The notes under the pieces are model-generated. The model worked only from the letters and a program-made list of their open reading frames with translations, was not told where the DNA came from and did no database searches. Shown here piece after piece: positions 5,401 to 52,315 of a stretch of DNA of 64,000 bases. Every line of letters begins with the position of its first letter. Within the stretch, counting starts at the first letter, position 1. The DNA comes from an uncultured beta proteobacterium (GTDB lineage: Bacteria > Pseudomonadota > Gammaproteobacteria > Burkholderiales > JACQAP01): the NCBI GenBank assembly GCA_963789945.1, contig CAWBMN010000008.1, forward strand, positions 131,144 through 195,143. Reading direction: 5' to 3'. The translations under genes were made by a program, and so were the position numbers.

Positions 5401-6171
5401 ATGAATAAGGAGTTGCGTAAGAAACCTGGGGCGAAACCCGGCGCCCGATTCTACTTTTCCGGCAAGCTCGGGAACGGCTCCGAGGTGCGATTAGCCCCGG
5501 AAGCCGCGCATCATGCGGCGCGGGTGCTGCGTCTCGCCGTGGGCCAACCCGTAACCTTGTTCGACGGACACGGCGGCGAGTTCGAGGCGCGCATTACCCG
5601 CATGGACCGCGGCGAGGTGACGATCAAGACCGGCGCACACCTCGCGGTCGAGCGGGAAGCCCCGCTCGACATCCTGCTCGCCCAAGGACTCTCGAGCGGG
5701 GATCGCATGGACCTGACCCTGCAGAAGTCGGTGGAACTGGGCGTAACAGCGATTCAGCCGGTCACAACCGAGCGCAGCGTCGTGAAACTCAAGGACGAGC
5801 GCGCGGCGCGGCGCGCCGAACACTGGCAGAACCTGGTGATCGCCGCCTGCGAGCAATGCGGCCGCAACCGCGTGCCCCCGGTCGCGCCATTGCTGGGCTT
5901 CGGCGAGTGGCTGGGACAACTGGGACCGCCCCGCGACGAACTCCGACTGATGCTCTCGCCTCATGCGGCGGTATCTCTGCGCGAACTCGCGCCCGCGCGC
6001 GGCAGGGTAATCCTGCTCGCCGGCCCGGAAGGCGGGCTCGCCCCGGGTGAAGTGCAGTCGGCGCAGTCTCGCGGATTCGCGCCGGTGCGTCTCGGCCCGA
6101 GGGTGCTGCGCACCGAGACCGCGGCGCTCGCCGCGCTGTCCGCGATTCAGGCTTTATGGGGCGATTTCTGA
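5401..6171 (+). CDS. rsmE: 16S rRNA (uracil1498-N3)-methyltransferase
   Basis: ATG at 5401 (MNKELRKKPGAKPGARFYFSG...). RsmE core LAQGLSSGDRMDLTLQKSVELGV...LLAGPEGGLAPGE. No obvious SD. Confidence 0.85.
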   Translation: MNKELRKKPGAKPGARFYFSGKLGNGSEVRLAPEAAHHAARVLRLAVGQPVTLFDGHGGEFEARITRMDRGEVTIKTGAHLAVEREAPLDILLAQGLSSGDRMDLTLQKSVELGVTAIQPVTTERSVVKLKDERAARRAEHWQNLVIAACEQCGRNRVPPVAPLLGFGEWLGQLGPPRDELRLMLSPHAAVSLRELAPARGRVILLAGPEGGLAPGEVQSAQSRGFAPVRLGPRVLRTETAALAALSAIQALWGDF

Positions 6172-6204
6172 AGCTGCGAACTTTCGGCGTAAAGAAAACT
6201 GAAG

Positions 6205-6443
6205 GTCTCACCACGAAGACACGAAGATCACGAAGAAACACGAAGGAAGACTTTCGAAGTGAACGACAGCACATCGATTATTGGCCAGCACACACTGTCT
6301 GAATACCCCGACCATCGGAGATCAACATCTTCACATTCCAAGTTCACGGCAACCCAAAAGAAGTTTGACCAATGTTTTTGGTTTTCTTCGTGATCTTCGT
6401 GTCTTCGTGGTGAGACTTGCGGTTTCGTGGTGAGATTTGCGGT
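6205..6443. repeat. CACGAAG-array inverted-repeat element, copy A (MITE/REP-like)
   Basis: A perfect 34-nt terminal inverted repeat, GTCTCACCACGAAGACACGAAGATCACGAAGAAA, lies at 6205-6238 against 6383-6416. The ~145-bp core has lower GC. It is followed by a 20-nt tandem duplication, TTCGTGGTGAGA(C/T)TTGCGGT, at 6404-6443. Confidence 0.85.
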
Positions 6444-6528
6444 TTTCCCGGCGTTGAGGTTTTCGCGATAAAGCCAACAGCCTTTATACTGTGCGGCTTT
6501 CACGACTCGAGCGGTAACAGGATCAATA

Positions 6529-7296
6529 ATGGAAATCAGGAACAGCAGCTTCATCGTCACCGGCGGAGCCTCGGGACTAGGCGGCGCTACCGTGGAAATG
6601 ATCGTTGCCGCCGGCGGCAACGCGATTATTGCAGACGTATCGCGGACGCAGGGCGAAGCGCTGGCCGCGAAACTTGGCAAGCGCGCGCGCTTCGTCGAAT
6701 GCGACGTTACCCGCGAGGATCACGGCAAGGCCGCGGTGGACGCCGCGCTCAAGGAATTCGGCGGCCTGCACGGTTTGGTGAACTGCGCTGGCATCGCAGT
6801 GGGCGAGAAGACCGTCGGCAAGGATGGGCCGCATTCGCTCGCCAGCTTCACCAAGGTGATCAACGTCAACCTGATCGGCACTTTCAACATGATTCGGCTT
6901 GCCGCGGACGCGATGTCGAAAGGCCAGCCGAACGCCTCCGGGGAACGCGGTGTCATCGTCAACACCGCATCGGTTGCCGCCTTCGACGGCCAGATCGGAC
7001 AGGCGGCGTACTCTGCCTCCAAGGGCGGCATCGTCGGCATGACGCTGCCGATCGCGCGCGACCTGTCGCGCAGCGGCATTCGCGTGGTCACCATCGCTCC
7101 GGGAATATTCGAAACCCCGATGCTCAAAGGCATGCCCCAGGAAATTCAGGACGCACTCGGCAAAATGGTGCCTTTCCCGCCGCGGCTGGGTCGGCCGGAC
7201 GAATACGCAGCGCTGGTCGGGCATATCGTTCAAAACGAGATGCTCAACGGCGAAGTGATTCGCCTCGACGGCGCGATCCGGATGCAACCGAAATAA
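6529..7296 (+). CDS. SDR family 3-hydroxyacyl-CoA dehydrogenase (HSD17B10-like)
   Basis: 255 aa with [15 protein letters not shown] and an ...[10 protein letters not shown]-terminus. Confidence 0.85.
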
Positions 7297-9300: not shown

Positions 9301-11298
9301 GTGCTGGCGCAAGCCGAAGATGCGGACGTGCCGCTGCTGGAGCGGCTGCGCTTCCTGTGCATCGTCAGCAACAACCTCGATGAATTTTTCGAGATCCGGG
9401 TGGCGGGCCTGAAGGCACAGATCGAACTCGGCGCCGACACCACAGGGCCAGACGGCGCGACCCCTTCGCAGGCTTTCAAGGAAGTATCCTCGCGCACTCA
9501 CCAGCTGGTTGCGCGCCAGTACCAGCTATGGAACGAGGACCTGTTGCCGCAACTCGCGCGCGAAGGCATCCGCTTCCTGCGCCGGCGCGACTGGAACGAC
9601 GCGCAGAAGACCTGGATCAAGGCATTCTTCTTGAGGGAGATCATGCCGATGATGACGCCGATCGGACTGGACCCGGCGCATCCGTTCCCTCGCATCCTCA
9701 ACAAGAGCCTCAATTTCGCCGTGCAGCTGTCCGGAAAGGACGCGTTCGGACGTAACTCCGGATTCGCGCTGGTGCAGGCGCCACGGGTGCTGCCGCGGGT
9801 GATCAGGCTTCCCCGGGAGATCGCCGACTGCGATTTCGGATTCGTATTCCTGTCCTCGGTCATCCATGCGCACGTCGGCGAGCTGTTTACCGGCATGGAG
9901 GTGCAGGGCTGCTACCAGTTCCGCGTCACCCGCAACAGCGACCTGTTCGTAGACGAGGAAGAAGTGAAGAACCTGCGCCTGGCGCTGCAGGGCGAACTGC
10001 CGCAGCGTCACTTCGGCGACGCCGTGCGTCTCGAAGTCGCGGATCTGTGCTCGCCGGAAATCTCGGACTTTCTGCTCGCCCAGTTCAACCTCAGTCGAGA
10101 CGATCTGTACCAGGTCAACGGCCCGGTGAATCTGGTGCGCCTGATGCAGGTGCCCGACTGGGTCGACCGGCCGGACCTGAAGTTTCCGCCGTTCGTTGCC
10201 GGCATTCCGCACGCGCTCAGCAGGCGTCCGGACATCTTCGCCGCGATCCGAATGACCGACATCCTGCTGCACCATCCGTTCCAGTCGTTCAAGCCGGTCA
10301 TCAGCTTCATCCAGCAGGCTGCCGCCGATCCGCATGTGGTGGCGATCAAGCAGACCGTGTATCGCACCGGTGCCAACTCTGAACTCATGCAGACGCTGAT
10401 CGACGCGGCGCGCAGCGGCAAGGAGGTCACCGTGGTGGTGGAACTGATGGCGCGCTTCGACGAGGAGGCCAATATCAACTGGGCCGCGCGCCTGGAGGAG
10501 GTCGGCGCACATGTGGTGTACGGCGTGGTCGGACTCAAGACCCACGCGAAAATGGCGATGGTGGTTCGCCGCGAAGACGACAAACTGCGCCGGTACGTGC
10601 ACCTGGGCACGGGCAACTATCACGCGCGCACCGCGATGCTGTACACCGATTTCGGTCTGTTCACCTGCCATGAGGAGATCTGTGCGGACGTCAACGACGT
10701 GTTCATGCAGCTCACCGGCCTGGGCAAGGCCGGCAAGCTCAGGCACCTCTGGCAGTCGCCGTTTACGCTGCATTCGCACGTGTTGAGTGCCATCCGGCGC
10801 GAAGCCGAGCAGGCGCGCACCGGAGTACCTGCAGGCATCATCGCCAAGATGAACGCGCTGCTCGAGCCCGAGATCATCGCCGCGCTGTACGAGGCTTCGA
10901 TGGCCGGCGTGCAGGTGGACCTGATCGTGCGAGGTGTGTGCGCGCTGCGCCCCGGGATTCCCGGACTTTCGGACAATATCCGGGTGCGCTCGATCATCGG
11001 GCGCTTTCTCGAACACCCTCGCGTTTTCTACTTCATGAGTTCCAACGAGGTGTTCCTTTCCAGTGCCGACTGGATGGACCGCAACTTCTTCCGCCGCATC
11101 GAAGTGTGCTTTCCAGTGCTCGACGAAAAGCTGAAGAAACGCGTGATCGACGAATCGCTGAAGACCTATCTCGCCGACAATGTCCAGGCTTGGGAAATGG
11201 ATGGCGACGGCGGCTTCAAACGCAGGAAACCGGAACGCGGCAAGGGCATTGCGGCGCAGGCGGTACTGCTGGACAAACTCGCCTCAAACGCGAGCTGA
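9301..11298 (+). CDS. ppk: polyphosphate kinase 1 (annotated from the first canonical start; the true start is probably upstream, see findings)
   Basis: 665-aa ORF with the PPK1 N, H, C1 and C2 regions. The conserved N-terminal helix LYLNRELAQIEFNRRVL is encoded in frame at 9256-9303, upstream of the first GTG. Confidence 0.9.
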   Translation: MLAQAEDADVPLLERLRFLCIVSNNLDEFFEIRVAGLKAQIELGADTTGPDGATPSQAFKEVSSRTHQLVARQYQLWNEDLLPQLAREGIRFLRRRDWNDAQKTWIKAFFLREIMPMMTPIGLDPAHPFPRILNKSLNFAVQLSGKDAFGRNSGFALVQAPRVLPRVIRLPREIADCDFGFVFLSSVIHAHVGELFTGMEVQGCYQFRVTRNSDLFVDEEEVKNLRLALQGELPQRHFGDAVRLEVADLCSPEISDFLLAQFNLSRDDLYQVNGPVNLVRLMQVPDWVDRPDLKFPPFVAGIPHALSRRPDIFAAIRMTDILLHHPFQSFKPVISFIQQAAADPHVVAIKQTVYRTGANSELMQTLIDAARSGKEVTVVVELMARFDEEANINWAARLEEVGAHVVYGVVGLKTHAKMAMVVRREDDKLRRYVHLGTGNYHARTAMLYTDFGLFTCHEEICADVNDVFMQLTGLGKAGKLRHLWQSPFTLHSHVLSAIRREAEQARTGVPAGIIAKMNALLEPEIIAALYEASMAGVQVDLIVRGVCALRPGIPGLSDNIRVRSIIGRFLEHPRVFYFMSSNEVFLSSADWMDRNFFRRIEVCFPVLDEKLKKRVIDESLKTYLADNVQAWEMDGDGGFKRRKPERGKGIAAQAVLLDKLASNAS

Positions 11299-11342
11299 GG
11301 CGCCCGGTCGGCTGCGCGTTAGCAATCGACGCATCCGCAGTC

Positions 11343-12863
11343 ATGTCCCTGGAAATCGAGATCAAGCTGTCGGTTCCCGAGAAGCACGCCCTGCGGCTCT
11401 GGGAAGTGCTCGCGCACCATGCGCATGACAAACCGGTCACGCATCGGCTGTTCTCCGCGTACTACGACACTCCCGAGCGCGCTCTGAAGGCCGCCGGCGC
11501 GGCATTGCGCCTGCGCCGTGAAAGCGGGCGCTGGTTCCAGACCGTGAAGAACCAGGGAACGGTCTCAGGCGGATTGCACCAGCGCACCGAACATGAGGTC
11601 GAAGTGGCGGCACAACTACCGAGCTTCCCGGCCATGGCCGAGGCCGGGCTCGGCGACGTGCTCGCGCACAAACGGCTTCGCGATGCGCTTACCGTCGTAT
11701 TCACCACTGAGTTCAACCGCACTTCGAGGCTGCTCAGGCCCGCGGCCGGCAGGGTTGTCGAGGTGAGTCTCGACCGCGGTGTGATCGCAGCCGGAGAGCG
11801 GCGCGAGCCGATTTGCGAGATCGAGCTGGAACTCAAGTCCGGTACCCCGCAATGTCTGTTCGACCTTGCACTGGAAATCGCCACTGTACTGCCGGTGCGC
11901 CTCGACAACCGCAGCAAGGCGGAACGCGGCTACGCGCTCGCCGCGAATTCGAAGCCGGGGCCGGTCAAGGCCGCGCCGGCGATGTTGACGGCGCAGATGA
12001 CAGTGGAGGAAGCTTTCGTCGCGCTGGTCTCGCAGTGTCTCGCGCACTTGCAGGCGAACGAAGACGGCCTTCTGCTGGGCCGCGATCCCGAGTACCTGCA
12101 CCAGGCCCGAGTGGGGCTGCGGCGTCTGCGCTCGGTATTCCGCGTGTTCGACGCTGCTGTGCCCATGGAGCCCTTTGCGGCACTCCTGGATCAACTCAAG
12201 ACGATCGGGCAAACGCTGGGCGCTGCGCGGGATTGGGACGTGTTCGTAACAGAGACGCTGATACGCTCGTCGAGCGAGATAATCGATCATCCGGGGATTG
12301 CCGATCTGAGAAGGCGGGCACGGGCGGCGCGCCGCCGCGCGGGCCAGGGGGCACGCGCCGCGGTCGCTGCGCCGGCGTATACCGGCATGCTGTTGCGCCT
12401 GTCGGCAACACTGAATGCCGGGAGCCGGCGTAGCGATGGCGCACACGCCCCGATCGCGCTGCCGCAGTTCGCCGCTGCTGCAATGGCACGCCGGCATTCG
12501 CGCGTAGTCAAGCGCGGCCGCCGCATCGAGACGCTCTCGTTCCAGGAATTGCACCGGTTGCGTATCGCGGTCAAACGGCTGCGTTACATCGCCGAATTTT
12601 TTCTTCCGCTTTGGCCGAACAAGGCGCGTAACTATGTTCGGGCACTCTCCGAGTTGCAGGATCTTCTGGGAAGGATGAATGACAATGCGATTGCGTGGCG
12701 GTTGCTCGATAGCCTGGCCGCGGAGGAACCGTCGCCCGCATTCCAGCAGGCGGTGGGCTACGTGCGCGGCTGGAGCGCCGCTGAGGCCGAACACTGCCGC
12801 AAGCAGCTTGCCGACGCGTGGAAGCAGTTCATGAGAACGAAGCCATGGTGGGTGCGCGATTGA
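11343..12863 (+). CDS. CYTH plus CHAD domain protein (YgiF-like inorganic triphosphatase family)
   Basis: ATG at 11343, MSLEIEIKLSVP (the EXEXK CYTH signature). The C-terminal half is helical and CHAD-like (HQARVGLRRLRS..., LHRLRIAVKRLRY). 506 aa. Confidence 0.85.
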   Translation: MSLEIEIKLSVPEKHALRLWEVLAHHAHDKPVTHRLFSAYYDTPERALKAAGAALRLRRESGRWFQTVKNQGTVSGGLHQRTEHEVEVAAQLPSFPAMAEAGLGDVLAHKRLRDALTVVFTTEFNRTSRLLRPAAGRVVEVSLDRGVIAAGERREPICEIELELKSGTPQCLFDLALEIATVLPVRLDNRSKAERGYALAANSKPGPVKAAPAMLTAQMTVEEAFVALVSQCLAHLQANEDGLLLGRDPEYLHQARVGLRRLRSVFRVFDAAVPMEPFAALLDQLKTIGQTLGAARDWDVFVTETLIRSSSEIIDHPGIADLRRRARAARRRAGQGARAAVAAPAYTGMLLRLSATLNAGSRRSDGAHAPIALPQFAAAAMARRHSRVVKRGRRIETLSFQELHRLRIAVKRLRYIAEFFLPLWPNKARNYVRALSELQDLLGRMNDNAIAWRLLDSLAAEEPSPAFQQAVGYVRGWSAAEAEHCRKQLADAWKQFMRTKPWWVRD

Positions 12864-12893
12864 CGCCCCGGAGTATGCTGTGAGGATGGCAAC

Positions 12894-13346
12894 ATGGATC
12901 TGATACTTTGGCGCCACGCGGAAGCCGTCGATGGCCAGCCCGATCTTGCGCGCAAGCTCACGCCCAAGGGGGTGAAGCAGGCAAAGGCACTCGCACAATG
13001 GCTGAGTTCCCGCCTGCCCGAGCAGACCCGGATCATCGTCAGCCCGGCCAAGCGCACGCAACAGACCGCCGCAGCGCTCACCGACGAATTTGAAATCGAG
13101 CACAAGCTCGCGCCCGGTGCACCACCGACCGCACTGCTGGCCGCAGCCGGCTGGCCCGAGCACAGGGGCACGGTCGTGGTCGTCGGCCATCAGCCCACTC
13201 TGGGGATGGCGGCAGCGCTTGTGATCGCCGGCAAGCCGATGCCGTGGAGCATCAAGAAAGGCGCCATCTGGTGGCTGAGCCACCGCGTGCGCGGCGAGCA
13301 TGCGCAAGTCGTGCTGCGCGCAGTGATTTCCCCCGATCTACTTTAG
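12894..13346 (+). CDS. sixA: phosphohistidine phosphatase SixA
   Basis: 150 aa, MDLILWRHAEA...LTPKG...VGHQPTL (RHG phosphatase motifs). Confidence 0.85.
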   Translation: MDLILWRHAEAVDGQPDLARKLTPKGVKQAKALAQWLSSRLPEQTRIIVSPAKRTQQTAAALTDEFEIEHKLAPGAPPTALLAAAGWPEHRGTVVVVGHQPTLGMAAALVIAGKPMPWSIKKGAIWWLSHRVRGEHAQVVLRAVISPDLL

Positions 13347-13363
13347 GTCATGGCGAATCCAAA

Positions 13364-13607
13364 TCTCACCACGAAGACACGAAGGACACGAAGAAAGGCA
13401 AGGCGGTACTGATTGAACGCGGGAATGCACAGAATTATCTGCTCTCGCCATACGCGTTGCGCAGCGCTCACCAATTGAGGATCTCTCAGTCGCCGGACAC
13501 TTTTGGATAGTGTGCTTCATACCCGCAAGTCCAATTTCAGGAATTTTTCTTGAGGTTTTCTTCGTGTTTCTTCGTGTCCTTCGTGTCTTCGTGGTAAGAC
13601 TTGCGGT
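13364..13607. repeat. CACGAAG-array inverted-repeat element, copy B
   Basis: The termini at 13364-13396 and 13567-13599 are complementary over 33 nt with 1 mismatch. They differ from the copy A termini only in one 2-nt spacer and the first base. The ~170-bp core is unrelated to copy A. Confidence 0.85.
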
Positions 13608-13622
13608 ATTAGAGGAGCGTAA

Positions 13623-15107
13623 GTGTTCGAATCGGCAGAGCTGGGACATTCGATTTCCAAGCGCACTTACGCGCGCGAGGTGCCGAAGCTGCGCGAAGCG
13701 CTGCTGGATGCCCAATACGACCTGTTCCAGGACGGCCGCTTTCCGGTGATGGTCCTGATCGCCGGCGTGGAGGGCGCCGGGAAAGGCGAAACCGTCAACC
13801 TGCTGGCCGAATGGATGGATCCCCGCCACATCCGCGTTGCCGCGTTCGGCGAGCGGTCGGACGAGGAACGTGAACGCCCGCCGATGTGGCGCTATTGGCG
13901 GGAACTGCCACCGAAAGGAAAGATCGGCATTCTCTTCGGTCACTGGTACACCGATCCCATCCTCGACCGCGTTCATCGCAGGTCCAAGCACCCGCAGCTG
14001 ATCCAGAGCATCGAGGAAATCATGCGTTTCGAGAGGATGCTCGCCGACGAGGGTGCGCTTCTCCTCAAATTCTGGTTTCACCTGTCGAAAGATAGACAGA
14101 AGAAACGCTTCAAGGCACTGGAGAAAGACCCGCAGACCCGATGGCGGGTGACCGAAACCGACTGGCAGCACTACGAGCTCTACGACAGGTTCCGCAAGGT
14201 CAGCGAGCTCGCGCTGCGGCAAACCAGTTCGGCTTCCGCGCCTTGGATCGTGGTCGAGGGAGAGGATGCCCGCTACCGCAATCTGACCGTCGGCCGCGCG
14301 CTGCTGGCGGCAATGCGGGAACGCCTCGACCAGAAGCCGGCAAAGCCGGCCTTGGACCGCATCCCGCCGATTCCGGCTCCGATCGACAACCGCCACGTAC
14401 TGGGCGCGCTCGACCTTGCGCTGAAACTCAACCGCAAGAAATACACGGAACTGCGCGCGCTGTACCAGGGCCGGCTCAATCTGCTGTCGCGCCATCCCGC
14501 GTTTCGCAAGCACTCGGCGATCCTGGTGTTCGAGGGCGCCGACGCCGCGGGCAAGGGTGGTGCCATCCGCCGCGTTGCGGCTGCGCTCGATGCGCGCCAT
14601 TACCGCATCATCCCGGTGGCCGCACCGACCGAGGAGGAGCGCGTCCAACCTTACCTTTGGCGATTCTGGCGACACGTCCCGCGGCTCGGCAGGTTCGCCC
14701 TGTTCGACCGCTCCTGGTACGGACGCGTGCTGGTGGAGCGGGTCGAAGGCCTGGCCGGTGAGTTCGATTGGGCGCGCGCCTATCCCGAGATCAACGACTT
14801 CGAACAGCAGCTCACCGATGGCGGCGCCATCGTGATCAAGTTCTGGCTGGCAATCAGCAAGGAGGAACAACACCGGCGCTTCAAGGAGCGCGAACAATCC
14901 GCGTTCAAGCGCTTCAAGATCACGCCCGAGGACTGGCACAATCGCAAGAAATGGGAAGGCTACGAACAGGCGGTGTGCGACATGGTGGACCGCACCTCCA
15001 CCGCGCTCGCGCCATGGACGCTCGTGGAAGCCAACGACAAGCTCTACGCCCGCATCAAGGTACTGAAGACGATTTGCGAGCGCCTCGAGTCGGCTCTCAA
15101 ACGCTGA
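13623..15107 (+). CDS. ppk2: two-domain polyphosphate kinase 2 family protein (PAP/PA3455-like)
   Basis: GTG start, 494 aa. Two tandem PPK2 domains, each with a Walker-A-like GxxGAGKG (GVEGAGKGE and GADAAGKGG). Confidence 0.9.
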   Translation: MFESAELGHSISKRTYAREVPKLREALLDAQYDLFQDGRFPVMVLIAGVEGAGKGETVNLLAEWMDPRHIRVAAFGERSDEERERPPMWRYWRELPPKGKIGILFGHWYTDPILDRVHRRSKHPQLIQSIEEIMRFERMLADEGALLLKFWFHLSKDRQKKRFKALEKDPQTRWRVTETDWQHYELYDRFRKVSELALRQTSSASAPWIVVEGEDARYRNLTVGRALLAAMRERLDQKPAKPALDRIPPIPAPIDNRHVLGALDLALKLNRKKYTELRALYQGRLNLLSRHPAFRKHSAILVFEGADAAGKGGAIRRVAAALDARHYRIIPVAAPTEEERVQPYLWRFWRHVPRLGRFALFDRSWYGRVLVERVEGLAGEFDWARAYPEINDFEQQLTDGGAIVIKFWLAISKEEQHRRFKEREQSAFKRFKITPEDWHNRKKWEGYEQAVCDMVDRTSTALAPWTLVEANDKLYARIKVLKTICERLESALKR

Positions 15108-31674: not shown

Positions 31675-33201
31675 TCAGTCCGCGGCGAGCGCCTCGGCTT
31701 CGATTTCGGCAAGCTGCGGCACCGACAGTTCGATGCCGAGCTTGTTCCAGTTCCTGATCTCGTCGCGCAGTTCGGCCGCAGTGAGGGGGTTCGCGGCGAG
31801 CCAGCGCGCATCCAGCTCGACGGTGAACGTGCTCTTCTTTTTCGATGCATGGATCGCCGGCAGCCGCACTTCGGAGTGGCTGCGATGCATCAGCGCCGCC
31901 AGCCGCAACGCGACCAGCAGTGTCCAGTCGGCGTCCTTGGCGACCATCCCGCGCAGCTTGTCGAGCGAACCGCGGTGCGCCAGCACCAGCAGCGACAGGT
32001 GTGCCTGTTCCATCTTGGAGAAACCCGGCATGTCGGCGTGGCCGATGATGTAAGCGGAGTGCTTGTGGTATCCGGAATGCGCTACGGAAAAACCGATCTC
32101 ATGCAGGCGCGCCGCCCAGGACAACATCTGCATCGGGTACTCGCGTTGCGCCTTGTCGCCCCCCGCCAGCTGCTCGAATAGTTTCAGCGCCAGTCGTTCG
32201 ACCCGATGCGCATGGGTGGACTCGACGTGGTAACGCTTCATGAACTGGCGCACCGTCAGTTCGCGCATGTCGCGACGATGCGCCCGGCCGATCATGTCCC
32301 AGAGGATGCCCTGGCGCATCGCGCCGTTTGCGAGCGCCATGTGTTCCACGTCGAGTTCAGCAAAGATCGCGCTCATGATGGCGAACCCGCCGGGCAGCAC
32401 CGCAACCCGGTCTTCCCGCAATCCCGGCAGATCCGATTTAGCAGCGTCGCCGGCCTTGAGCAGTGCGCCGCGCAGACGCTCCATGCCTTCGGCGGTGATT
32501 CCCGATTCGCTCCAGCCATTGGCTTCAAGAATGTCTCCGATCGAACGCGCGGTGCCGGAGGAGCCGACCGCCTGCTGCCAATGCTTGCGCGAGAACTGCT
32601 TGCGGATCGTTTCCACTTCGATGCGGGCGGCCAGCTCCGCTTGTTTCATGCTGGACTTGCCGATCCTGCCGTCGGGAAAGTACCTGAGGCTGTAGCTGAC
32701 GCAGCCCATGTACAGGCTCTCGAGTTTATGCGGCTGATTGCCGGCACCGATGATGAATTCGGTGGAGCCGCCGCCGATGTCCACCACCAGACGCTTTTCC
32801 GGAGCAGCCGGCAGGCTATGTGCGACGCCCAGGTAGATCAGCCGCGCTTCCTCGCGTCCGGCCACGACTTCGATCGGGAAGCCGAGGGCGGCCTCGAACC
32901 GGGGCATGAATTCGCCGGCGTTCTTTGCCACCCGCAGGGTGTTGGTGCCGACCGCGCGCACCGCGCCTGGCGGCAGTCCGCGCAGGCGTTCGCCGAAGCG
33001 TTTCAGGCATTCGATCGCGCGCGCCTGCGCCGCATCGTCGAGGTGCTTTTCGGGGGTCAGGCCGGCGGCGAGCCGTACCGGCTCACGCAACGAATCGAGG
33101 GGATAGATCTGGTCGTCGACAACGCGTCCGACCTGGAGCCGGAATGAGTTGGATCCGAGGTCGACTGCCGCAATGGTCGGGGGCGTTTCCATCACGGCCA
33201 T
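31675..33201 (-). CDS. ppx: exopolyphosphatase (Ppx/GppA family)
   Basis: 508 aa, IAAVDLGSNSFRL..., DIGGGSTE, and a C-terminal HD-like region. Confidence 0.93.
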   Translation of the reverse strand: MAVMETPPTIAAVDLGSNSFRLQVGRVVDDQIYPLDSLREPVRLAAGLTPEKHLDDAAQARAIECLKRFGERLRGLPPGAVRAVGTNTLRVAKNAGEFMPRFEAALGFPIEVVAGREEARLIYLGVAHSLPAAPEKRLVVDIGGGSTEFIIGAGNQPHKLESLYMGCVSYSLRYFPDGRIGKSSMKQAELAARIEVETIRKQFSRKHWQQAVGSSGTARSIGDILEANGWSESGITAEGMERLRGALLKAGDAAKSDLPGLREDRVAVLPGGFAIMSAIFAELDVEHMALANGAMRQGILWDMIGRAHRRDMRELTVRQFMKRYHVESTHAHRVERLALKLFEQLAGGDKAQREYPMQMLSWAARLHEIGFSVAHSGYHKHSAYIIGHADMPGFSKMEQAHLSLLVLAHRGSLDKLRGMVAKDADWTLLVALRLAALMHRSHSEVRLPAIHASKKKSTFTVELDARWLAANPLTAAELRDEIRNWNKLGIELSVPQLAEIEAEALAAD

Positions 33202-33226: not shown

Positions 33227-33388
33227 CTCACCGCAAAGACGCAAAGGACGCGAAGGAAAATCACCTCACCCCCCGCCCTCTCCAGCAAGCTGGAGAGGGT
33301 GCCCAAAAACTACACGATCGTGGATCAGCGCGTTTCCATCACCCTCTCCACCCGGTTGTTGGGGGGAGAGGGATGGGGTGAGGGGGGC
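33227..33388. repeat. composite intergenic repeat: degenerate CGCAAAG heptad arm plus alternating GGAGAGGG..GGGGTGAGG units
   Basis: CTCACCGCAAAGACGCAAAGGACGCGAAGGAAAA lies at 33227-33260. A perfect 11-bp palindrome, CCCTCTCCAGC-aa-GCTGGAGAGGG, lies at 33276-33299. A second hairpin pairs 33342-33349 with 33365-33372. A long-range inverted repeat pairs 33261-33283 with 33365-33387. Confidence 0.75.
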
Positions 33389-33437
33389 GCTCTCTGCGGT
33401 AAGCGTTATGGGTATGGTGTGATGCCAGTGCCGCCTG

Positions 33438-42272: not shown

Positions 42273-42400
42273 CCCGAAGGAAAAACGCAAATAAGCGAGA
42301 AGAAATTCCCGTTTTCGGCATATCCGCCGGCACGTGGCGCAACGCTCGTGTCCGCACCAAATCCGGTTTTCTTCGTGTTATTCGTGCCTTCGTGGCAAGC
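42273..42400. repeat. degenerate CACGAAG-array inverted-repeat element, copy D
   Basis: The right arm TTTTCTTCGTGTTATTCGTGCCTTCGTGGCAAGC (42367-42400) faces a decayed left arm CCCGAAGGAAAAACGCAAATAAGCGAGAAGAAA (42273-42305). Confidence 0.6.
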
Positions 42401-44425: not shown

Positions 44426-44553
44426 GCCACAGAGATCACAGAGAACACGGAGAAAAACAAGACCGGGATCTCACCACGAAGGCACGAAGTCACGAAGAAA
44501 AATCAAGGGAACTCACTTCGAGTTCCAAAAAACGTTTCTTTGATCTCTGTGGT
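44426..44553. repeat. nested repeat, copy E: CACAGAG-array inverted repeat enclosing a solo CACGAAG arm
   Basis: The outer inverted repeat CCACAGAGATCACAGAGAA (44427-44445) pairs with TTTCTTTGATCTCTGTGG (44535-44552). The inner arm is TCTCACCACGAAGGCACGAAGTCACGAAGAAAAA (44469-44502). A 7-bp hairpin, GGAACTC-acttc-GAGTTCC, is also present. Confidence 0.7.
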
Positions 44554-52239: not shown

Positions 52240-52315
52240 TGGTGCCGGCAGCAGGAATCGAACCCGCGACCTTTTGATTACAAATCAACTGCTCTACCAA
52301 CTGAGCTATGCCGGC
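52240..52315 (-). tRNA. tRNA-Thr (anticodon UGU)
   Basis: The reverse strand reads GCCGGCATAGCTCAGTTGGTAGAGCAGTTGATTTGTAATCAAAAGGTCGCGGGTTCGATTCCTGCTGCCGGCACCA. It folds as a cloverleaf with the anticodon loop TTTGTAA and an encoded CCA. Confidence 0.9.

Follow-up and report, generated by a model that had tools for sequence, protein, structure and literature searches.

Short intergenic elements whose two facing arms are arrays of the heptamer CACGAAG were found in a 64,000-nt stretch of a Burkholderiales metagenome-assembled genome (contig CAWBMN010000008.1, positions 131,144 to 195,143; hereafter the window), a chromosome segment of 62% GC that carries housekeeping genes and a polyphosphate cluster. 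The element matches no catalogued repeat or RNA family among those searched (Rfam 15 and the searchable literature). Because its module is strict, spread over genomes, phages and plasmids, present at filled and absent from empty orthologous sites, nested and constrained in its units, it is tentatively read here as a non-autonomous hairpin element resembling REPINs (doublets of repetitive extragenic palindromes, REPs, that form hairpins), which would be recognised in trans and whose units would be kept by selection.

Architecture of the elements and of the basic module

Two complete elements lie in the window, element 1 at 6196–6445 between the housekeeping genes rsmE and SDR, and element 2 in the HisPhos/ppk2 gap of a ppk1-CHAD-HisPhos-ppk2 operon. 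Their parts are as follows.

6196–6245, plus strand: element 1 left arm, AAACTGAAGG-TCTCAC flank followed by four CACGAAG units with spacers a, at and aaa
6246–6382, no strand: element 1 core (loop), 137 nt of unique sequence
6383–6425, plus strand: element 1 right arm, three CTTCGTG units (spacers at, t) and the flank GTGAGACTTGCGGTTT, reverse complement of the left arm
6404–6445, plus strand: tandem duplication of the element 1 right terminus, 20 nt, TTCGTGGTGAGAYTTGCGGT, 2.1 copies
13364–13393, plus strand: element 2 left arm, TCTCAC followed by three CACGAAG units with spacers a and ga
13394–13559, no strand: element 2 core, 166 nt, unrelated to the element 1 core
13560–13607, plus strand: element 2 right arm, four CTTCGTG units (spacers ttt, tc, t) and the flank GTAAGACTTGCGGT

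The arms of element 1 (6196–6238 and 6383–6425) are 43 nt long and 93% complementary, with perfect complementarity over 34 nt, in agreement with a preliminary description of this DNA in which CACGAAG arms with spacers of 1, 2 and 3 nt had been recognised at this position. The left arm reads GTCTCAC-CACGAAG-a-CACGAAG-at-CACGAAG-aaa-CACGAAG, the fourth heptamer (6239–6245) giving it four units against three in the right arm. The 20-nt duplication that had been noted at the right end is also present, as TTCGTGGTGAGA(C/T)TTGCGGT with 95% matches. Element 2, where spacers of 1 and 2 nt in the left arm face spacers of 1, 2 and 3 nt in the right arm, had been described as a second copy with an unrelated core, and no similarity between the two cores was found, the best blastn-short match being 7 nt. 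The pattern CACGAAG-N1-3-CACGAAG occurs 12 times in the window and 0 times in 100 shuffles, and every copy in the window falls between called open reading frames (ORFs), as previously stated. No ORF was found within element 1 and no sigma-70 promoter consensus at it. Folded as RNA, element 1 forms a long hairpin of −102.4 kcal/mol (z = −7.75 against shuffled controls), and element 2 folded as DNA reaches −57.5 kcal/mol (z = −6.95). BsaI (GGTCTC) and BbsI (GAAGAC) sites in the left terminus of element 1 (6204–6221) are a coincidence and no mark of synthetic DNA, since other copies do not have them.

Searches of Rfam 15 returned only tRNAs at the gathering score, both in the window, where a tRNA gene at 52243–52315 (minus strand) is the sole such match, and in 16 loci with short-loop copies. 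An E-value scan of element 1 gave only MIR831, at 31 bits against a gathering score of 100, which is an artefact of the long hairpin. A full-text literature search for the CACGAAG motif as DNA or RNA returned no relevant paper.

The module was defined from flank and spacing statistics on 320 non-redundant arrays. It is about 55 nt long and consists of an A-rich stretch, the flank TTT[A/C]AC, three (sometimes four) 7-nt units and a short A-rich tail, with exactly three units in 314 of 339 arrays. The base before the first unit (position −1) is C in 83% of arrays and position −2 is A in 76%, position −3 is A or C, positions −4 to −6 are T-rich, and the A-rich stretch lies further out; the outer triplet of the flank is AAC in 39% of copies, and with the arm read inverted it is GTG rather than GTT in 37%. 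Spacers are 1–3 nt long and purine-rich, and with few exceptions their lengths never shrink from outside to inside: (2,2) occurs 143 times, (2,3) 57 times and (1,2) 49 times, as against 4 cases of (2,1) and 0 of (3,2), and (1,1), (3,3) and (1,2,3) are likewise common. The A-rich tail extends about 15 nt past the last unit and is followed by background composition. The idea that the cores are decayed longer arrays is ruled out by this short reach of the purine richness.

About 44% of arrays are solo. Those that are paired face each other in 79 cases and diverge in 4, and the same spacing pattern is found in both arms in 67 of the 79 convergent pairs. Loops range from 8 to 400 nt (median 73), loops of 8–30 nt being common, and the inverted repeat reaches only 2–6 nt past the units. 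Spacer bases are complementary between arms at 46% of positions, near the composition-based prediction; it is therefore the units that are kept, not the pairing of the whole arm. The stem end is followed by GTGA(A/G), with no T runs.

Distribution, unit types and orthologous sites

A scan of one genome per species (596 Gb) with three CACGAAG units at 1–3 nt spacing as the query located the module in at least 120 genome stretches from at least 15 phyla, where about 2–3 matches would be expected by chance according to our own arithmetic. Carriers among the matches listed include Methylococcales, Burkholderiales, Alpha- and Deltaproteobacteria, Acidobacteriota, Planctomycetota, Verrucomicrobiota, Chloroflexota, Nitrospirota, Gemmatimonadota, Firmicutes-like Heliobacteria, Cyanobacteria, Actinomycetota and others. 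The complete genome of Herpetosiphon aurantiacus DSM 785 (Chloroflexota) carries the module, plasmids of Anabaena cylindrica PCC 7122 and Streptomyces clavuligerus carry a CACGAAG array, and the triple-unit module occurs in at least 120 viral contigs as well. The dispersed family suggested by the preliminary description is thus borne out well beyond the few loci of the window. Array-dense viral contigs encode tape-measure, head, tail, integrase and repressor proteins and are therefore ordinary tailed temperate phages; no Mu-like transposase is among the 25 PHROGs families listed for them, and matches to CACGAAG arrays in cultured phages in GenBank occur only at chance level. Some phages hold five or six solo arrays, all co-oriented. 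In one viral contig (L197, IMGVR_UViG_3300038701_003367), five co-oriented intergenic composite repeats, each beginning at a stop codon, consist of three CACGAAG units, then GC-rich palindromes, then three units of CACAGAG/CGCAGAG/AACAGAG.

The evidence for a family lies in this architecture and not in the raw count, because triple arrays of scrambled control heptamers are numerous in viral contigs too (56 and at least 120 stretches). The control arrays are perfect tandems in 77% and 63% of cases, mainly of period 9 or 10 and apparently coding, have an inverted partner in only 4–7% and mostly do not have the flank. Among CACGAAG arrays, 21% are perfect tandems, 95% have three copies, 33% have a partner and 62% have a CAC/AAC flank. 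One of the two scrambled heptamers (CACCGAG) partly overlaps the wider family of units by rotation, so that the controls are conservative.

CACGAAG is one member of a broader unit family and no unique signal. Variant units were seen both in the fetched array loci and in an unbiased set of loci of PPK2 relatives, and CACAGAG, CACGGAG, CACGGAA, CACGGAT, CGCAGAT, CGCGAAG, CGCAAAG, CGCGGAG and CGCAACG all occur in the same design; the superfamily consensus looks like C[AG]CN[AG][AT]N. Most variant-unit elements have a T(T)CA(C) flank, and their partner arm always holds the exact reverse-complement unit. In two loci (L079 and L093), the partner units are CTTTGTG, giving G-U pairs on one strand only. 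Unit types coexist within one genome, where the spacing pattern is genome-specific and common to the different types, and they nest symmetrically in L167, L209, L146 and the window (44428–44551); for example, the order in L167 is three CACGGAG, 23 nt, three CACGAAG, the loop, three CTTCGTG, 23 nt and three CTCCGTG. In two other Betaproteobacteria (L264, 1925–2130; L276, 2585–2800), long two-orientation arrays of an 8-mer, GATTCAC[AC]G/CACCGATT, with up to about 30 units, lie just downstream of ppk2 and might belong to this repeat class as an extreme relative.

Orthologous sites were compared in 80 metagenome loci of PPK2 relatives, only one of which (L242, the closest relative, 86% identity) has CACGAAG arrays, at the site of element 2. 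Between this locus and the window, none of the 42 positions in the first three units of the two arms has changed, as against 4 of 9 spacer positions, with adjacent flanks only partly alignable and loops not alignable; conservation of the heptamers rather than the spacers fits sequence-specific reading. The element 2 site of more distant relatives holds a decayed relic (L243) or a CACGGAG-type element (L291), and the rsmE-SDR site holds a degenerate CGCAAAG-type hairpin in L326 and L327. Empty sites were found in relatives with 89–95% SDR identity (L506, L507, L508 and L324, the last from the same sample): the empty rsmE-SDR gap of element 1 measures 52–53 nt (L506 and L507) and the empty HisPhos-PPK2 gap of element 2 measures 10–12 nt (L506, L508 and L324), and from these short gaps it follows that the window is about 290 and 265 nt longer at the two sites. 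The elements are insertion-polymorphic between relatives. In two other loci (L033 and L049), one arm and the flanking gene are common at about 93% identity and divergence is complete from the loop onward, and in L322 a CGCGGAG array stands at the junction of a deletion in ppk2.

Downstream of element 2, a new Shine-Dalgarno sequence (gaggag) precedes the PPK2 GTG start at 13623, so that in the filled state a GTG start replaces ATG and the ribosome-binding site lies in the extra DNA. The elements lie at the junctions of operons, where they can provide a gene with a new ribosome-binding site and start codon, as ppk2 shows here; they also coincide with synteny breaks and deletions, and such long hairpins can break assemblies.

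Known systems and competing readings

Short intergenic repeats rank with the most poorly understood components of bacterial genomes, and to our knowledge REPs and REPINs are the only class of them with a proposed propagation mechanism. REPs of the GTAG and CGTC super-families are palindromes of 20–40 bp with an unpaired GTAG or CGTC tag at one end (PMC3733652). A REPIN has two inverted units and a spacer, is predicted to form a hairpin in single-stranded DNA or mRNA, and has in its genome the gene of a cognate RAYT (REP-associated tyrosine transposase, of the Y1 HUH type), which is usually flanked by the repeat (PMC3116915). The CACGAAG elements are likewise short non-coding extragenic units arranged as inverted doublets that form a hairpin with a spacer (PMC3116915; PMC3733652), as seen in the excess of convergent pairs and in the fold of both full elements beyond shuffles. 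In addition, they show no target-site duplication and encode no protein, hundreds of copies are plausible here, and they show long persistence at orthologous sites, patchy occurrence among relatives, clustering and nesting. They differ from REPs in that the arm is a direct-repeat array without self-complementarity, pairing occurring only between arms, in that the flank is TTT[A/C]AC (320 arrays) without a GTAG or CGTC tag, and in that REPs are lineage-specific whereas the unit described here is found in many phyla and in phages. The earlier view that this is no simple REP hairpin therefore holds (PMC3733652). REPINs differ further in the loop, which reaches 400 nt here and is unique to each copy. 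No RAYT or TIRYT gene was found near arrays in the fetched loci by a weak tblastn search. The elements are nevertheless best filed with the REP/REPIN kind of intergenic hairpin repeat, though their arms are no palindromes and have no tag, and no cognate transposase turned up in the fetched loci.

On this reading, which we hold with less than even confidence, two facing modules would form a long hairpin in single-stranded DNA or RNA, made of three to four 7-bp helices, small and mostly unpaired spacers of equal length and an arbitrary loop. By analogy with REPINs and RAYTs, the hairpin and its repeated units might be recognised in trans by a factor encoded elsewhere, a protein or otherwise; copies would arrive as insertions at gene boundaries without target duplication, after which selection would hold the units, possibly to the benefit of the host, and spacers and loop would drift. 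That no ORF, no conserved neighbouring gene and no Rfam family was found agrees with the idea of a non-autonomous element that is read in trans. Where several unit types share a genome, their matching between the two arms of an element speaks for a part played by arm-to-arm pairing. A sequence-specific reader is favoured by the invariance of the units, by their being three in number and spaced in order, and by the existence of solo arrays. A dedicated reader, if there is one, would belong to a widespread system that has been overlooked because its carriers are mostly uncultured environmental lineages, and cultured carriers (Herpetosiphon aurantiacus DSM 785, Desulfonema magnum, Anabaena cylindrica PCC 7122 and Streptomyces clavuligerus) make the question testable.

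Several results weigh against this REPIN-like reading. No trans-acting gene turned up: tblastn with E. coli RayT, a single-sequence query of low sensitivity, gave no match in 4.6 Mb of fetched loci, and an all-vs-all blastp of 830 ORFs from genome loci and 1252 from viral loci linked no gene family to the arrays. Neither a target-site duplication nor a core shared between non-orthologous copies was found as a direct trace of copying and insertion, and insertion is deduced solely from filled versus empty orthologous sites. The solo arrays, including the co-oriented ones of phages, are left unexplained by a hairpin model, and the arms are non-palindromic and without the tag of REPs. Moreover, distant relatives have different unit types at the same site (CACGGAG in L291, CGCAAAG in L326 and a decayed one in L243), which calls either for very ancient vertical inheritance accompanied by concerted change or for insertion more than once at a hot spot.

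Such whole-type switches could also point to a separate, undescribed pan-bacterial trans-acting system, common to cells and temperate phages, that reads a hairpin of periodic 7-bp helices and regenerates or homogenises its units. The six to eight units of an element are identical, the spacers drift and elements switch type as a whole, and it is for these reasons that regeneration of units may be considered; we regard such a system as possible but give it limited credence. If true, this would add a class of mobile or regulatory DNA guided by structure to those already described, separate from REP/RAYT, from integron attC sites and from miniature inverted-repeat transposable elements (MITEs).

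An integron attC site is an imperfect hairpin with 7-bp boxes, short unpaired spacers and a variable terminal loop, and is recognised as a folded single strand and not by its sequence. The CACGAAG hairpin has the same 7-bp boxes, short unpaired spacers and highly variable loop, and in about 39% of copies its outer box approximates RYYYAAC / GTTRRRY (TTTAAC / GTTAAA). It differs in that each arm consists of three identical boxes where attC sites have R and L boxes, and its copies are scattered singly among housekeeping genes, with solo arms common and no linked integrase. Membership among attC sites was rejected, there being no cassette arrays and an AAC outer triplet in only 39% of copies. The ends of phage Mu offer a second resemblance, with three inverted sites per end that hold TTCAC and [CT][AG]CGAAA, near TTCAC and CACGAAG/CGCGAAG here. 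The Mu sites are about 22 bp long, irregularly placed over about 180 bp, and begin with TG, and Mu makes 5-bp target-site duplications and has a 37-kb genome, whereas the units here are 7 bp with ends CAC...GTG and no 5-bp duplication; the resemblance may be a coincidence. The Mu-site and attC resemblances are leads only.

The short tandemly repeated repetitive (STRR) sequences of cyanobacteria are contiguous tandem heptamers of variable copy number. Like the CACGAAG arrays, they are intergenic arrays of 7-nt units of unknown function, and the two can occupy the same intergenic regions. The present arrays differ in having exactly three units, obligatory spacers of 1–3 nt, a defined flank and an inverted partner. 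On the Anabaena cylindrica PCC 7122 plasmid (L511, 2560–2590), three STRR-like TGTCACC units stand about 40 nt from the CACGAAG array, and CGCAAAG arrays lie in that same intergenic region. A number of other candidates were set aside because they do not fit in motif or spacing, including DnaA boxes, parS, CtrA, PhoB/PhoP boxes, extracytoplasmic function (ECF) promoters, sigma-54, LexA, NarL heptamers, CsrA/Hfq/Rho sites, Chi, T7-like promoters and likeness to the 16S 3' end.

A different reading places the function in RNA: the element would be a cis element transcribed as an interrupted hairpin and acting as 3'-end protector, terminator, attenuator or intercistronic RNase III site, with solo arrays as U-free unstructured intercistronic spacers and mobility secondary or absent. 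Many copies do lie directly after stop codons, or between co-directional genes just upstream of a Shine-Dalgarno sequence and start codon, and element 2 lies inside an operon and supplies the Shine-Dalgarno sequence and GTG of PPK2. The very stable fold, the unit type always matched between arms and the CTTTGTG partners of L079 and L093, with G-U pairs on one strand only, point the same way. However, solo arrays between co-directional genes have the CACGAAG strand in the sense orientation in 20 cases and antisense in 13, hence no strand rule (the flank end is a median of 37 nt from the nearest gene and the other side 96 nt, and some arrays overlap a stop codon), and spacer mismatches show no asymmetry between G.U (25) and A.C (27). 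Paired elements are as common in divergent, promoter-bearing regions (14) as in convergent ones (17), the other 56 being co-directional. Structure alone would permit compensatory change, whereas the units are invariant in orthologues and form a narrow family. No terminator-like site (a short GC-rich hairpin with a U tract) was found at element 1 in 5900–6800 and no T run follows the stem, and on these grounds an intrinsic terminator was rejected. Overall, a cis element acting in RNA seems rather doubtful.

Binding of double-stranded DNA is the next reading, in which each 7-bp unit would be contacted by one subunit or domain of an oligomeric protein, with three on one face of the helix and inverted pairs bridged; candidates would be ribbon-helix-helix proteins such as omega, MraZ-like proteins, the end-binding domain of a transposase, or a nucleoid or insulator protein. 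In favour of such a protein, with a fixed geometry, are the constant three units, repeated every 8–10 bp (close to one turn of the helix), with an outer flank that is conserved and spacing that is ordered, and likewise conserved units with free spacers, solo arrays in either orientation to transcription, and a genome-specific spacing common to different unit types; the TTCAC and YRCGAAA(R) half-sites of Mu ends, with three sites per end, offer a resemblance only. Against this, several self-matched unit types in one genome would need several paralogous readers, loops of 8–400 nt sit badly with a bridging complex of fixed form, array-dense phages and neighbouring genes show no recurring candidate protein, and one unit over at least 15 phyla would imply a protein that is extremely conserved or has been widely transferred. 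Arm-to-arm pairing accounts for the matching of type between arms no less well than a single DNA-binding protein does, and we consider binding of double-stranded DNA unlikely.

The elements also share with MITEs their terminal inverted repeats, small size, non-coding content, intergenic position and insertion polymorphism, and might have arisen by deletion from a DDE insertion sequence; the arrays would then be subterminal sites bound by the transposase, and age would have erased target-site duplications and shared cores. Filled and empty orthologous sites and nested copies are in keeping with this, multi-site ends are known in Mu-type and Tn7-type elements, and element 2 is flanked by a possible, weak, decayed duplication of ATGTTCGAATC. 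On the other hand, 74–75 pairs show no excess of direct repeats at offsets 0–8 or in the 60-nt flanks, among 54 loops compared (copies from the same genome included) only those of orthologous or duplicate loci match, and loops of 8–30 nt are common. Similarly, no gene recurs among the ORFs enclosed by arrays 0.4–6 kb apart, as would be seen in an autonomous, gene-carrying version. The elements thus have neither the target-site duplication, nor the conserved core, nor the parental insertion sequence of a MITE, and their arms are internally repetitive, in line with the preliminary view that they are no classical MITE; an ordinary MITE is a quite improbable identity. Finally, the idea that there is no family at all and that independent, microsatellite-like slippage products are merely alike is hardly credible, for although scrambled heptamers also form triple arrays, these are mostly perfect tandems that seldom have a partner, and slippage cannot yield a conserved flank, ordered spacing or a 79:4 orientation bias.

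Other copies and neighbouring features

The window holds further copies of the design.

33227–33260, plus strand: solo variant array, CACTCAC-CGCAAAG-a-CGCAAAG-ga-CGCGAAG
42273–42400, plus strand: decayed pair, left arm degenerate and purine-rich, right arm CTTCGTG-tt-ATTCGTG-c-CTTCGTG-GCAAGC (42371–42400)
44428–44551, plus strand: variant-arm element, CACAGAG-at-CACAGAG-aa-CACGGAG at 44428–44452 with a CTCTGTG partner at 44545–44551
44469–44502, plus strand: solo array of three CACGAAG units, spacers g and t, ATCTCAC flank, nested in the loop of the 44428–44551 element

Three of these sites had been listed earlier as decayed or solo arms, and all three are present, but their nature differs from one to the next: the array at 33227 is made of variant units, the site at 42273 is a decayed pair, with right-arm heptamers spanning 42371–42394, and the array at 44469 is nested in a CACAGAG/CACGGAG element. 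The outer end of the solo array at 33227–33260 is 26 nt from the start codon of a minus-strand gene (31675–33201). Just inside this array, at 33262–33395, there is a separate GC-rich inverted repeat, CACCTCACCCCCCGCCCTCTCC ... GGAGAGGGATGGGGTGAGGGG, which holds GGGGTGAG, consistent with the motif GGGGWSAS. This motif has been reported in the inverted repeats that flank TIRYT tyrosine transposases (PMC3733652).

The polyphosphate cluster around element 2 (9301–15107 and neighbours) is conserved and comprises ppk1, CYTH-CHAD, His_Phos_1 and a two-domain ppk2, with ppx and phoU nearby in relatives (L322–L325 and L506); in L322, L324 and L508, ppk2 is truncated or has an internal deletion. At the rsmE-SDR site, close relatives (L322, 3284–9870; L324, 3761–9868; L508, 3–7707) hold a 6.6-kb block on the opposite strand, with genes for a giant multi-GAF histidine kinase, an Hpt protein and a response regulator-cyclase. 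In addition, a 10-nt repeat, CGAACGCAAN, present in three to four copies and followed by CCAGATA[AC]AGATAC, turned up by chance through a control pattern in five viral contigs (L387, L398, L401, L406 and L409).

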